Assembly (NCBI GenBank): GCA_965248535.1
Contig: CBDFJR010000005.1
Location: 2,176,001-2,240,000 of the forward strand
Direction: 5' to 3'
DNA from: Phormidesmis sp.
GTDB taxonomy: Bacteria; Cyanobacteriota; Cyanobacteriia; Leptolyngbyales; Leptolyngbyaceae
DNA length: 64,000 bases
This document shows, one piece after another, positions 7,225-12,959 of this stretch. Position 1 is the stretch's first letter, and every line of letters starts with the position of its first letter. The position numbers and the translations under genes were made by a program. Under the pieces are notes generated by a model. It saw only the letters and a program-made list of their open reading frames with translations, was not told the origin of the DNA and did no database searches.

Positions 7225-7273
7225 AAAAAATGAGAGATGAAGCAGATAGGTTGGTTTCACCTCCCATTTTTTT
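7225..7273. terminator. Bidirectional intrinsic terminator between convergent glgC and aroF
   Basis: AAAAAATGAGAGATGAAGC...GGTTTCACCTCCCATTTTTTT imperfect hairpin with A and T tracts on both sides. Confidence 0.6.
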
Positions 7274-8128
7274 AAGCGATCGCTAACTGGGGGCTTTGAG
7301 CCTCATAGACCTGACGACCGATCGCTTCGGCAACGGGCTTGAGACTGCGGACTAGACTCACCATGTCGTTGAGAGCTAACGCTTGACGGGCATCAGAAAC
7401 AGACTTTTCTGGCTCTGGGTGACACTCAATGATCAGACCGTCGGCACCACACGCGATCGCGCCACGAGATAGATCCGCGATCAGTTCTCGCTTTCCGGCG
7501 GCATGGCTGGGATCGACCATCACAGGTAAATGAGTGATTTGTTTGAGGGCGACGACGGCTCCTAAATCCAGCACGTTGCGAGTGTAGGGGTCAAAGCTGC
7601 GAATGCCTCGCTCGCACAGCACAACATTGGGGTTGCCGTGACTGACGATATATTCGGCGGCCATCACAAACTCCTCGATCGTCGCCGCCAACCCTCGCTT
7701 GAGCAAAATCGGCTTGTTGGCTTGTCCAACGGCTTTGAGCAGATCGAAGTTTTGCATATTGCGGCTGCCGATTTGCAGCATATCGGCATAGGCAGCGATT
7801 TCCTCGATCTGTGAAATGGCCATCACTTCAGTCACGACAGGCATCCCCGTAGCTGGTTGCGAACCTCTGCCAAGATTTCTAGCCCCTCGATGCCCATGCC
7901 CTGAAACGCATAGGGCGACGTGCGCGGCTTATAAACGCCACCTCGCAACGCTTGCACGGGCGCAAACTGAAGGTGACGGGCGACGGTTTCCATTTGCGTC
8001 AGGCTTTCGACGGTGCAGGGGCCGCCGATGACGACGATTTTTTGACCCCCGATCGCCACTCGCTCAGAGAGTTTAACGATCGTGTTCTGATTTGATTGAG
8101 ATTTAGCGACCAATTTTGCATCTTTCAT
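7272..8128 (-). CDS. aroF: DAHP synthase type I-beta, short form without N-terminal ACT domain; split by a frameshift near 7845-7860 (error or recent pseudogene)
   Basis: ORF 7832-8128 (IGGPCTVES, RGGVYKPRTSPYAFQG) and ORF 7272-7844 (QIGSRNMQNF, LKRG, CERGIRSF, DPSH) are contiguous halves; SD GGAG before ATG 8128. Confidence 0.9.
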
Positions 8129-8148
8129 GACCTAGACTCCTAAATAAT

Positions 8149-8178
8149 AAAAAAGCCCGAAACCTTTGGGTTCCGGGC
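8149..8178 (-). terminator. Attenuator terminator 2 (proximal to aroF)
   Basis: GCCCGGAACC-CAAA-GGTTTCGGGC 10-bp stem followed by UUUUUU, about 20 nt upstream of the aroF start. Confidence 0.9.
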
Positions 8179-8202
8179 CTGACGAACATTTGCACGACAG
8201 CT

Positions 8203-8265
8203 TCACCCAGAACTGGTTGGGATAAAAAAATAAAATCTAAATCGCCAGGAATTCAGGTGGAGCAT
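8203..8265 (-). CDS. Aromatic amino acid leader peptide 2 (MLHLNSWRFRFYFFIPTSSG)
   Basis: 20-aa ORF with a W-R-F-R-F-Y-F-F cluster; its 3' end GUUCUGGGU pairs with the 5' arm of terminator 2. Confidence 0.8.
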   Translation of the reverse strand: MLHLNSWRFRFYFFIPTSSG

Positions 8266-8279
8266 CAGAGAAAAAACCG

Positions 8280-8304
8280 AATCAGGACATTTAATCAGGA
8301 CATT
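8280..8304. repeat. 12-bp direct repeat AATCAGGACATT x2
   Basis: Identical copies at 8280-8291 and 8293-8304. Confidence 0.85.
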
Positions 8305-8332
8305 AAAAAACCGCAGAGGTTAGTCTGCGGTT
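8305..8332 (-). terminator. Attenuator terminator 1 (distal)
   Basis: AACCGCAGA-CTAACC-TCTGCGG stem-loop followed by UUUUUU. Confidence 0.88.
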
Positions 8333-8359
8333 CACTGGGGCGCTCACAACGAACGACAT

Positions 8360-8413
8360 TCACCCCAAGTGAACCGCCTCGCGCCAAAAAAAGAAAAACG
8401 TGTTGTGAGACAT
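8360..8413 (-). CDS. Aromatic amino acid leader peptide 1 (MSHNTFFFFWREAVHLG)
   Basis: 17-aa ORF with four consecutive Phe codons then Trp; its 3' end GCGGUUCACUUGGGGUG pairs with CGCCCCAGUGAACCGC, which overlaps the terminator 1 5' arm. Confidence 0.85.
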   Translation of the reverse strand: MSHNTFFFFWREAVHLG

Positions 8414-8445: not shown

Positions 8446-8474
8446 AACTTAACAGAGGAACTCGATCGCGTCAA
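8446..8474 (-). promoter_or_regulatory. Sigma70-type promoter for the leader-aroF transcript
   Basis: TTGACG-N17-TAAGTT with extended -10 TGn. Confidence 0.65.
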
Positions 8475-8528
8475 GTACCTTAGATGAGGTTTGAAAAGTA
8501 TCGAAAGTTTCTTCGCTTCGTTGCCGTC

Positions 8529-8584
8529 CCGCCCGTGACTGCAAGTCCGGGCTAACGGGGCGAAACCCGTTTCAACGGGTTGAA
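8529..8584. repeat. REP-like double-hairpin element
   Basis: GCCCGTGACTGCAAGTCCGGGC and AACCCGTTTCAACGGGTT palindromes. Confidence 0.5.
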
Positions 8585-8665
8585 TTCAACTGCTACTAGG
8601 GATGACGCTGGGATTCGGTTGTTTCGCTGCGCCTTCTGAAAGGATACGGGTGTCGAGCAGATATA

Positions 8666-8902
8666 TCATAGATTGACGCGATCGGGAATGGGACTTTGAT
8701 CGCGGGTGAGGTCGAGTTCACCACTGGCAAGCGCTTCAGCGAGGGGAGAATCTTGTAGGAATTCGACAAGACTTTGGTGAGTAGGTTGGGGAGTTGAGGC
8801 TGGATTGGAGGCGGAGAGACTTTCGCTGAGGAGTTGAATGAGCCGCTGTTTTTCTGCGGGTTCAAGACCAAGGAGTTGTTGTTCTAATTCTTGGGTGAGC
8901 AT
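8666..8902 (-). CDS. Small antitoxin-like hypothetical protein
   Basis: ELEQQLLGLEPAEKQRLIQLL and SLVEFLQDSPL...ELDLTRDQS resemble cyanobacterial antitoxin-like small proteins; no toxin gene follows. Confidence 0.55.
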   Translation of the reverse strand: MLTQELEQQLLGLEPAEKQRLIQLLSESLSASNPASTPQPTHQSLVEFLQDSPLAEALASGELDLTRDQSPIPDRVNL

Positions 8903-8946: not shown

Positions 8947-11900
8947 TCATTTCCATTGATTGCATACGTCGCGCATGGCATCGACCATGCCTCGGATGGC
9001 GGCGGCTCCGCCGAGATGTGCGATCGGGGGATGCAGCGTGGCGAGGTCTTGCATAAGATCGGCGCGGGTGCAGTGGGCAAGGAGGTGAAGGTGGGATTGC
9101 CAGTCGGGATACGGGAGTGTAGCAAGAGAAAGGCGAGGAAGATAGGATCGGAGGGTTGTGGCGCGGGTGAGCTTGTGGATGATGGCATGGATGGCATCAA
9201 GGGCTTGGGGCAGAAACACTTCAGGTAGCTCTTCAGCTAACCCACACAACCCTTCTGCACGCGCTTGCTCATTTTGGAATAGCGACAATATTTCTAGAAG
9301 TGCGGGCAGTAATGCTTCAGGCAATTGCTTAGCTACACCACCATCGCAAAATATATCTCCAAATTCCACATACTTTCGCTCAGTCTGAATCAACAACCAT
9401 AGCGCCTCAAACGCTTCAGTTAAATAAGCTGGGTCAGTTTGAATTAGAGCATAGAGAAACTCTAAAACAGCACGTTTAAACTCATCTTGGACTAATCGCG
9501 CCAATTCTAACCCTTTAGTAAAATAAGTTGAATCAATTTGTGCTAGGGAATGCAATGCCCACGCACGCATGAATTCATCCTGAATTGATCGTGCAGCCGA
9601 TGACAACTGGGCAAGGTCAGCATTGCTAACCTTAGCTAGATCACGCAATGCAGGGGCACGGTCTGTGATTTTAGACCATGCAAAGGCTTGCTCATCCTCA
9701 ATAGACTCGCCGCACTTAATGCTTCTGCAAAATATGTTTCGTCAATTTCCGCTAAGTCAATCAATCTAAGTGTACGGTTGTAGTTGTTCTGTTGTGATCG
9801 AGCCACGCTTAAAGCTTCTGCAAAGCAGATTTCGTCAATTTGGGCTAGGAAAGTGCTTAATATTCCTGCACGATCGGACTCATCCTGAATTAATCGTGCA
9901 GTATTCAATGCTTCCATGGAGTACGTTCTGTCAATTCGAGCTAAGACGCTCAATGCTCTTGCACGATCGGACTTATCCTGAATTAACCGTGCAGCATCCA
10001 ATGCTTCTGCAAAATATGCTCTGTCGATTCGAGCTAAAATGCTCAATGCTCTTGCACGATCGAACTGCATCCGAATTGAGCGGGCAGCATCCGATGCTTC
10101 TGCAAGATATGCTCTGTCGATTCGGACTAGTTTGAAGAGTGCCCTTGCCTGCTTGTCCTCATCGTGAATTGAGAATGCCACGTCCAACAATCTAGCAATA
10201 TCAGCAGTGTTCACTTCGGCTAAGATACTCAGTATCTTCACTTTTCGCATATTCCAAGGCTCAATCAACCTCTCCTTCTCAATTGCAAGAAATGCCGCTA
10301 ATGCTTCTGCAAAATAAGCTGGGTCAATTTTGGCCAAGACACTCAACGCCACCGCGCTCTCATGTTTATTTCTAATTGTTCGTGCTGTTGTCAATGCCTC
10401 AGTAAAATGAGTCGAGTCAGTTTTAGCTAGAGCAGTTAATATCATCGCCCGCCAGTACTCATCTTGAAGAGATCTCGCTGTCTCTGCTGAAAGATAAGTA
10501 TGGTCAATCTCAGCTAAGGTATCCATCACTTCTGAATGAAAGAATGGATGTTGAATTGACCGTACAGCATCTAATGCTTCTTCAAAATATGCGTTATTGA
10601 TTTTAGCTAGCGTACACAATGCTGTTGCACGGGCGGACGCGTTTTGAACTGACCGTACAGCGTCTAATGCTTCTTCAAAATAGGAATTATCAATTTTGGC
10701 TAGATCACTCAATGCCGATGCTCTATGACATTCGTCCTGTATTGATCGTGAGACCTCTATGGTCTCTGGCAAGTAAACTGAGTCAATCTGAGCTAATTTG
10801 TTCAATGATCTTGCGCGATCTCTCACATCTCGAATTGACCGTGCCACCCTCACCGCTTCTAACAGGTAGGCTGAGTCAACCTGGGTTAAGGCAGTCAATG
10901 CCATTGCAATGTTACTCTCATTCCGCAGTGATCGCGTCTTCTTAACCGCAAACCCAAAGATCGCCTTAGGCAAATACGACGCAAGTTTCTCAATCGCCTC
11001 AACAATATTCTCCTCATCCTGCATTTGCTCTACATATGCCCAAGCTTGCTCTGGTGTCCAATACTTACGCTTCACAAACTCTGCCATCATCCCGATCGGT
11101 AGATTCCCCACCAAACTATTCAGCGTTGCTGTAATCAATGCATATCGACACTGCAACACAATCGAGCGAGTATTATCTTGCTCATAACTTTCCTCTGCAA
11201 TTTGCCACCCTCGCTTCACATCCTGTACAAAAATCGCAGGTTGCCCCAGTCGATCGCACGCCTCAAACCAAGCATTCCGCCCCTGCTCATCACTCATCGC
11301 CATCAGCACATGAATCTCATCCTCTCGCCCCGCCTGCTGGAGATGCCACGTCAAATGGCGATGAATATATCCATCATTCGGCAACCGATCCCAGCGATCG
11401 CACTTTTGGCGATAGCGATCCAAGAATTGAGCATGAGCATCCGCAAGCGTTCGGATTGGAGCGCTGAGGGTTGCTTGTTCGATCAATCCCCGCGCCGTAT
11501 CGTGCATCAAATCATGCACCCGATAGGTTAGCTCCCCTTCCAATGTCTCCGTCCCACTGGTCAGAAACGATCGATTCCGCAGAGCAATTAATGCCTTCTT
11601 CGCTTTCAAGGGCGACAACTCCCACAGTGTCACCGCCATCCGCACATCCAGACTCACATCCTCTGGCAACACTCCTAACCACGCAAACTGCCGTAACTGT
11701 TCCGCACTCAACCGCCGCAAACTCAAATTAAAACAAGCCCGCAAACTATACTTGCGCTGCTGATTCTCATCCAGACAATCCCAAGCCTCCGAAGAATCCA
11801 ATACCTCCAACGCTACTGATCGCCGCTCTGTCTCAAACTCCGATCGCAACTCCCCCCAACTCAACCCATCCCGCACCTGATTCGCCGCCAAATCTAACGC

Positions 11901-12959
11901 CAACGGCAAATATCCCAACGACTTCGCAAACGCTTTTACTTCCGATTCCTGTTCCGGTTTCCACTGTCGTTTTAGCTTTTGCCGCACTAGCTCGATCGCT
12001 TCCACTTCCGACATCAAATCCAACAGATGATACTCCGCTCCCTCAATCTGCGCCTCCCGCGTCGTCACCAACACCCGACACGCTGCACCGCCCACCCGAA
12101 AATGCTCCACATGCGCCCCATTCCACACATCATCCACCACCAGCAACATTCGCTTTTCCAGTAGCACCGTCCGCAAATAACTTGAAGCCCATTCCAACGT
12201 CGTCGCCGAATAACTCTCCCGCGACTTATCCAACGTCCGAATCCAATCTCCCAGCAAATTTTGAAGGTCGGGATTCTGTCCCAGCGTCACCCACAAGATC
12301 CCATCTGCAAATCTCGTCTGCACCTCAGCATCTAGCACCAACGCTGTTGCCAACACCGATTTGCCCAATCCGCCTAAACCTGCGATCGCGCTCACCACTA
12401 ATGCCCGATCGTCCGTTGCCAACAGCTTCTGCTTCACCGCATCAAACGCTTTAGGACGCGGCACATAGTTCTCCGGCAACCGCACCCCTAGAGACGGCGC
12501 ACCCACCTTCAGTCCTGATTTCGGGCTTTGCTCTGGTAGAGCCTGCAATTTCGACTTGGGCGATCGCTTACTTTCCCAGAGCTTATCAAACGCTTCGAGA
12601 TTACGACTGATGTGTGTTGAACTTAACGTCAGCGTAAAATCCCACTGCGCCTCACCCTTTGTTTTCACGCGATGGTCATGCAAAATCCCCAGAAAATCCC
12701 GCATCGCCTCCAAGGCTTCCCGCACATTTGCGGTCGTCACAGTTGCCTGTCCGTCTTGATTGGTGACGTGCATCAAAGCTTGCAGTGTCGTCTCGATCGT
12801 CACCTTCTGACTTCCTGCTGCTTCATCCTGCCAGCGAAACTGTAATTTTTTTGAATCGCTGATCTCTCCTACTTTTGTCGCCTCCAAAATCCCCTTCAAC
12901 ACTTGACGGACACGAGCTTGCACGATCGGACCATGGGATTTTTTCTGAGAGCTAGGCAT
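8947..12959 (-). CDS. NLR-like STAND protein: N-terminal domain + NB-ARC + winged helix/helical domain + ~32-aa helical repeats; frameshift near 9708-9712
   Basis: Walker A GLGGLGKS, Walker B LLVVDDVW, GYLPLAL, VHDLM; repeats ALxxARSIQDExxRAxALxxLAxID continue in ORF 8947-9648. Confidence 0.85.

Follow-up and report, generated by a model that had tools for sequence, protein, structure and literature searches.

Upstream of a DAHP synthase gene in this cyanobacterium, the distal leader element can be read with high confidence as a transcription attenuator controlled by the ribosome; it is followed by a second such unit in series, and the enzyme beyond them is predicted to be feedback-free. Conservation, covariation and geometry strongly support this reading, and from them we infer its function; judged from sequence, the distal attenuator is real and conserved, and very probably functional. 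DAHP synthase makes the precursor of Phe, Tyr and Trp. The relevant features lie on the minus strand of the window, meaning the whole 64,000-nt stretch of DNA analyzed, in the order promoter, distal unit, proximal unit and DAHP synthase gene:

8446–8474, minus strand: predicted sigma-70-type promoter (TTGACG, 17 nt, TAAGTT, extended −10 TG)
8360–8413, minus strand: distal leader ORF, MSHNTFFFFWREAVHLG then stop (ATG at 8413, stop at 8362–8360)
8384–8398, minus strand: control codons Phe-Phe-Phe-Phe-Trp (TTT TTC TTT TTT TGG), codons 6–10 of the distal leader
8361–8377, minus strand: 5′ strand of the distal antiterminator (segment 2), within the 3′ end of the distal leader ORF
8327–8342, minus strand: 3′ strand of the distal antiterminator (segment 3), overlapping the 5′ arm of the distal terminator
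8305–8333, minus strand: distal intrinsic terminator (10-bp stem, 6-nt loop, U6)
8203–8265, minus strand: proximal leader ORF, MLHLNSWRFRFYFFIPTSSG then stop (family consensus W-F-Y-G/S-F-Y-F-W)
8170–8213, minus strand: proximal antiterminator (8213–8205 pairs with 8178–8170)
8149–8180, minus strand: proximal intrinsic terminator (z = −4.73, 0 of 200 shuffles)
8137–8141, minus strand: Shine-Dalgarno-like AGGAG of the DAHP synthase gene, outside the proximal terminator
7272–8128, minus strand: type I-beta DAHP synthase, catalytic barrel only (NCBIfam; 284 aa in relatives)

The original prediction was of a leader ORF carrying TTT TTC TTT TTT TGG, followed by a 16-pair helix with one bulged U that sequesters AACCGC of the terminator stem. 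All of this is borne out. The ORF is present as listed, and 8377–8361 pairs with 8342–8327 through 15 Watson-Crick pairs and one U-G pair, with one bulged U; the ViennaRNA centroid likewise has 16 pairs. The 61-nt antiterminator segment folds at −29.7 kcal/mol (z = −4.41) and the terminator, whose stem spans 8333–8308 with a U-tract down to 8305, at −16.2 kcal/mol (z = −3.77), each equalled by 0 of 200 shuffles. Because GAACCGC of the terminator's 5′ arm is also part of the antiterminator's 3′ strand, the two helices are mutually exclusive. Such an arrangement is rare by chance: among the genome's 55,275 ATG ORFs of 8–35 codons, only four combine at least four F/Y/W codons in six with a terminator-like hairpin, and two of these four are the distal unit and the adjacent proximal unit. 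Several hallmarks of an attenuator are found together here, namely an upstream ORF on what is likely the same transcript, clustered end-product codons, an intrinsic terminator, and an exclusive antiterminator that covaries. Directly after the distal terminator, at 8280–8303, lies an 11-nt direct repeat, each copy of which contains ATG-TCC-TGA (Met-Ser-stop); close relatives have it as one copy.

How would such an element work? A ribosome that has moved past the control codons would cover segment 2 (8377–8361), the terminator would form, and RNA polymerase would stop near 8305. Stalling on a Phe codon, and to a more marginal extent on the Trp codon, would instead leave segment 2 free to capture the terminator arm. 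After read-through of the distal unit, the second leader would repeat the test, meaning that the gene would be transcribed only when charged aromatic tRNAs are short. The two read-through probabilities would multiply, and the response would be tighter and steeper as a result. In the host genus, a shortage of Phe or Trp would open both gates and a shortage of Tyr only the second. Since the gates are in series and the first lacks Tyr codons, Tyr shortage alone would not be expected to induce the gene there.

The strongest general evidence comes from conservation. Loci were gathered through the enzyme alone, which gave 140 loci, of which 135 were short-form, 129 of those distinct, and 122 of these with at least 560 nt of flank. 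Both units are present in 119 of the 122 (117 found by script, plus L094 and L100, whose proximal ORF exceeds 40 codons); of the remaining three, two are proximal-only and one has an interrupting insertion. Neither unit was found in any of five long-form loci. A scan found an intrinsic terminator in 118 of 120 distal units. For geometry and folding, L107, L117 and L087 were excluded, as were units lacking an anchor or terminator, so that n ranges from 96 to 123 between counts. The homologs are kin, and the conservation, codon and covariation counts therefore overstate independence.

The distal control run is conserved as a set of aromatic codons. Across 118 homologs its five positions are 93, 98, 97, 97 and 100% Phe/Tyr/Trp, compared with 2–25% for the four preceding codons, and the family consensus is Y-F-Y-F-W. 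The first position of each control codon is fixed as T, while the second varies among T, A and G, yielding only F, Y or W; synonymous exchange occurs between TAC and TAT (57 and 34 Tyr codons) and between TTT and TTC. TTT predominates among the Phe codons (99/105 and 102/103 at two positions), and with so strong a bias, selection may also act on U-richness in the RNA itself. Could the U-rich run itself be the sensor? The pyrBI-like mechanism is one of U-tract or nucleotide sensing, and on this account the run would pause RNA polymerase and the aromatic codons would be a by-product. The TTT bias, together with a run of 7 T inside the window's distal leader, fits such an account, but the pattern is codon-periodic, with TAC and TAT alternating and TGG fixed; moreover, the leader stop lies 21–34 nt upstream of the terminator in 117 of 118 units and the gene downstream encodes the aromatic entry enzyme. 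Sensing of the U-tract is very unlikely.

Which amino acids would be sensed? The original prediction was of a sensor chiefly for Phe, with one input from Trp. That is a fair description of the host genome, given its FFFFW run and the folding model described below, but not of the family, in which the consensus is Y-F-Y-F-W and 113 of 120 distal leaders contain all three of F, Y and W. Since the Trp codon is the most fixed control position (114/118) and so many leaders carry all three residues, Trp is probably a selected input rather than an incidental one. The seven Tyr-free distal leaders are those of all six members of the host genus plus L022. Phe and Trp occur in both leaders of 118 of 118 pairs, and Tyr in both of 110. 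Other genera of the same family keep Tyr in the distal leader, so from sequence comparison its loss in the host genus looks derived.

In 117 of 118 homologs the control run is preceded by an ATG in its own frame; distal leaders were recognized by their start, and the independent figure is that for each of the other frames, 0 of 118. A Shine-Dalgarno-like word precedes the distal leader in only 2 of 120 units, so it may not be translated efficiently. This lack is one reason to consider a protein or ligand, rather than a ribosome, as the factor that toggles terminator and antiterminator, with the ORF vestigial or secondary; another is that the codons within segment 2 are fixed at the nucleotide level (GTT in 113/114). 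Against a toggle of this kind stand the frame-specific ATG, the conserved position of the stop, and a modelled switch point that falls at the last control codon. In addition, Rfam gives no riboswitch or T-box at the gathering score in the window and three further loci, only matches with chance-level E-values. A protein or ligand toggle is thus about as improbable as U-tract sensing, and a translating ribosome is the preferred agent.

Covariation supports both distal helices. In 43 diverged distal units, 95.8% of cells in the antiterminator core are paired, 6 of 10 pairs have changed on both sides, and 35 cells carry both-side changes compared with 13.6 after shuffling, a score reached by 0 of 500 shuffles. 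In the terminator 96.7% of cells are paired and both-side changes occur at 5 of 10 pairs, again with 0 of 500 shuffles reaching the score. When the arms of 14 non-redundant distal units were swapped, cognate pairs averaged −20.5 kcal/mol vs −15.4 kcal/mol for swapped ones (0 of 5000 permutations). The distal stop codon is covered by a conserved local hairpin (93% paired, median −6.75 kcal/mol) that shows no compensatory change; this may be a pause hairpin and may account for the TGA stop of 111 of 120 leaders. The strong 1:2 hairpin of trpL has no supported counterpart in the cyanobacterial distal unit, where a search found no 1:2 pause hairpin with covariation support.

The preference for TGA, along with a C-terminus that is mostly V-H/R-x-E/G, could also be expected of an arrest peptide. 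TnaC, an arrest leader peptide, is the model for this idea, in which a free aromatic amino acid would hold the ribosome at the stop and termination would occur when that amino acid is plentiful. Here, however, H-to-R changes in the leader are matched by compensating bases in segment 3, pointing to a constraint on the RNA; the other residues vary freely, and the proximal leaders stop at TAA, TGA or TAG. Peptide-mediated arrest is slightly less probable still than either preceding alternative.

Ribosome positions were modelled by constrained folding, in which the RNA was blocked to 6–12 nt past each A-site codon, assuming equilibrium and a given footprint. The predicted spacing suits an attenuator, with Trp at its edge. 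With the ribosome on any of the four Phe codons of the window's distal unit, the modelled probability of the terminator, P(terminator), is 0.02–0.04 at footprints of 6–9 nt. On the Trp codon it is 0.03, 0.33, 0.84 and 1.0 at 6, 8, 9 and 10 nt, such that this codon is predicted to antiterminate at footprints of 6–8 nt only. The modelled probability goes from ~0.03 to 1.0 between W10 and R11 and is 1.0 from codon 12 on. For 117 homologs at an 8-nt footprint, the median is predicted to rise from 0.33 to 1.00 just after the Trp position, with noisy medians upstream of the switch point (0.33–0.85). In 78 of 96 anchored units the last Trp codon precedes the antiterminator core by 8 nt, which puts it at the limit of the working range. 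Untranslated distal RNA is predicted to adopt mostly the antiterminator (P(terminator) 0.33). Single-sequence structure prediction was uninformative (pLDDT 36.5).

The proximal unit behaves differently in the model. At full-length equilibrium its terminator is predicted to be favored at every ribosome position. In transcripts cut before the 3′ arm of the terminator, segment 2 holds ~10 of 11 arm bases with the ribosome on a control codon and is predicted to hold none with the ribosome at the stop. According to the model, then, the proximal unit needs kinetic control and would switch only where the antiterminator folds ahead of the terminator and is then retained. The proximal antiterminator is 92.3% paired, and both-side changes are seen at 2 of 9 pairs, weaker than for the distal helix; a partner-swap test was marginal (5 of 5000, yet just 17 of 31 beat the row median). 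Might the hairpins be constitutive terminators or processing signals with no switch? The dominance of the proximal terminator at equilibrium is what this idea has in its favor, but the competing helix covaries, and both hairpins lie downstream of a conserved promoter pattern and ahead of the gene, in a stretch where no further such pattern occurs either within the units or in the gap that separates them. Its probability is close to negligible, and two attenuators in series remain the preferred reading.

The promoter pattern at 8446–8474 was spotted by eye and then tested across homologs; a promoter scan tool reported 0 sites, as TTGACG-17-TAAGTT scores under its threshold. The pattern occurs no more than 150 nt from the distal ATG in 115 of 119 homologs, 112 of them with TG, compared with 4 of 118 control windows, and between the distal and proximal units in 0 of 116 homologs. 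Because it lies upstream of the distal unit and was not found between the units, both units likely sit on one transcript. Upstream of the promoter, at 8478–8700, is a hairpin-rich stretch, parts of which recur at ~90% identity at three further sites in the genome; contig depth also jumps here, and the stretch is likely a small mobile repeat. Further upstream, 8947–12959 (minus strand) encodes a 1107-aa protein with EAD4, NB-ARC and helical-repeat regions, whose repeat tail continues in another frame (233–264 aa); the two are possibly one split gene.

What is the gene under control? Shine-Dalgarno-like words precede it in 108 of 123 homologs. In an intact homolog (P0001), Pfam finds DAHP_synth_1 only, without the ferredoxin-like PF18152. 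The best PDB match is 1vs1, a 276-residue enzyme, and the PDB alignment begins at residue 2 of P0001 vs residue 67 of 1rzm. By Pfam and PDB alignment, P0001 thus has no N-terminal ferredoxin-like/ACT or chorismate-mutase domain. PMC6435475 speaks of unadorned and of unregulated type I-beta DAHP synthases, and given this and its architecture the short enzyme is predicted to be feedback-free. The genome's second DAHP synthase (C5, near 1,327,000) is the long form, with an N-terminal PF18152 domain, and no aromatic leader was found ahead of it. Given this contrast in regulatory domain and leader, the short copy probably serves as a reserve enzyme under transcriptional control. In the window the short gene is split by 2 extra bases near 7849–7854. 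It is in one frame at 25 of 25 other short-form loci compared, and contigs from sequencing runs X1 and X2, used for this question only, match 7779–7904 with 0 other differences but lack the 2 bases. For these reasons the frameshift is probably an assembly error, which is likelier than a dead gene.

Both the genes around the locus and its homologs put the host genome within the cyanobacteria. Carriers of the paired units include Nostoc, Calothrix, Microcoleus, Coleofasciculus, Leptolyngbya, Stenomitos and Lusitaniella, and at 65% identity or above the short DAHP synthase turned up in 52 genomes out of 301 drawn from across the phylum. RNA models of the distal and proximal units match 55 and 57 of 151 class-wide genomes, 54 of them in common and with one match each, in a survey where some of the genomes had also built the models and 27 candidates were scored per genome. 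A weak proximal-model match in G054 (E = 3e-4) is taken as chance, with no DAHP synthase or aromatic leader beside it. In genomes from the phylum's other classes, the nine best hits to DAHP synthase, a small sample, are all long forms, none with an aromatic leader and terminator, and plasmid records gave distant homologs alone (<60% identity). Within the genome itself, no further copy of either unit was found at E ≤ 1 among 150 candidates scored. The distal model misses the proximal unit and vice versa, which lends no support to a common origin. Scanning the whole genome for further amino-acid leaders returned 78 loose hits; on visual inspection of the opening residues of the ORF that follows, no other resembled a leader before a matching biosynthetic gene. 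At G000:C2:1626358, between cupin and Fe-S assembly genes, a 14-codon Ile/Leu/Val-rich ORF is followed by a strong hairpin and U-run with no Rfam match; the hairpin is probably the cupin gene's terminator.

Single-unit variants also exist. In L143 (G077) the distal unit is the only one and immediately precedes the gene, and L092, L110, L145 and L149 are apparently proximal-only; because both kinds of genome occur, each unit appears self-sufficient, as far as sequence can tell. In three Calothrix records (L094, L100 and L107) the customary stop of the proximal leader is gone and the ORF extends into the terminator or past it; the second gate may follow a different logic in these. At L118, inserted DNA resembling a transposon end (by eye) interrupts the proximal leader, and L117 has a premature TAA in the distal leader, after the control codons. 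L144 (G413) carries a diverged tandem in which both leaders are seemingly GTG-started (by eye), matched by the proximal model only.

The arrangement has several known relatives. As described in PMC11802643 and PMC3082878, E. coli trpL-trpE and pheL-pheA likewise have a run of cognate codons, an antiterminator overlapping an intrinsic terminator, and a stop ~25–30 nt ahead of that terminator; unlike here, each has one unit, concerns one amino acid and precedes a branch enzyme. The closest tested system is Corynebacterium glutamicum aroR-aroF (Neshat et al. 2014, as summarized in PMC11802643), in which a leader peptide with aromatic codons (Phe-Tyr-Phe) precedes a DAHP synthase operon and read-through rises under Phe limitation, with Tyr having no effect. 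By that summary it is a single leader in an actinobacterium, whereas the cyanobacterial locus has two leader-terminator units in series, Trp codons, and a type I-beta barrel-only enzyme downstream; the likeness is one of description rather than of sequence comparison. The Acholeplasma uORFC-13-1 motif, as presented in the relevant part of PMC8632094, is a predicted Phe-codon uORF with an intrinsic terminator before aroF; it differs in being a single predicted unit in another phylum, and no Rfam model matched here. Two short ORFs, each coupled to attenuation, are reported for the Salmonella mgtCBR leader, where ATP and proline are sensed additively to control Mg2+ transport and virulence genes, a system that the cited text contrasts with the two intrinsic terminators of the metE leader (PMC3641672). 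Unlike that leader as described, both units here would sense one amino-acid family, each with its own intrinsic terminator.

For cyanobacteria, a passage of PMC4833913 (2016) states that there were no reliable data on attenuation, and the main text of a genome-wide survey of premature terminators (PMC2965389) does not contain "cyanobacteria," "aroF" or "DAHP." A search of the published literature, with subscription papers mostly outside it, found no report of a tandem aromatic attenuator in the phylum. What is new, then, is that the attenuator occurs twice in series, that its codons are pan-aromatic across the family but Phe/Trp in the host genus, and that it lies in a phylum where no report was found. 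More broadly, it is likely that a large part of the cyanobacteria carries two attenuators in series that together form an AND gate controlling a feedback-free DAHP synthase, that this is the phylum's first amino-acid attenuator, and that in the host genus the first gate has been re-tuned from Phe/Tyr/Trp to Phe/Trp.

What are the implications? First, leader-peptide attenuation requires a ribosome close behind RNA polymerase. A scan of the genome for Rho gave no match above cut-off, and the universality of transcription-translation coupling is in question (PMC7858274). A conserved amino-acid attenuator would offer a direct test, and a natural reporter, of such coupling in cyanobacteria. Second, series units that respond to the same signal, together with the single-unit variants and a genus that has dropped Tyr, form a comparative series on how tandem attenuators may sharpen a response. 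Third, the attenuator would offer a genetic handle on shikimate flux in photosynthetic hosts.
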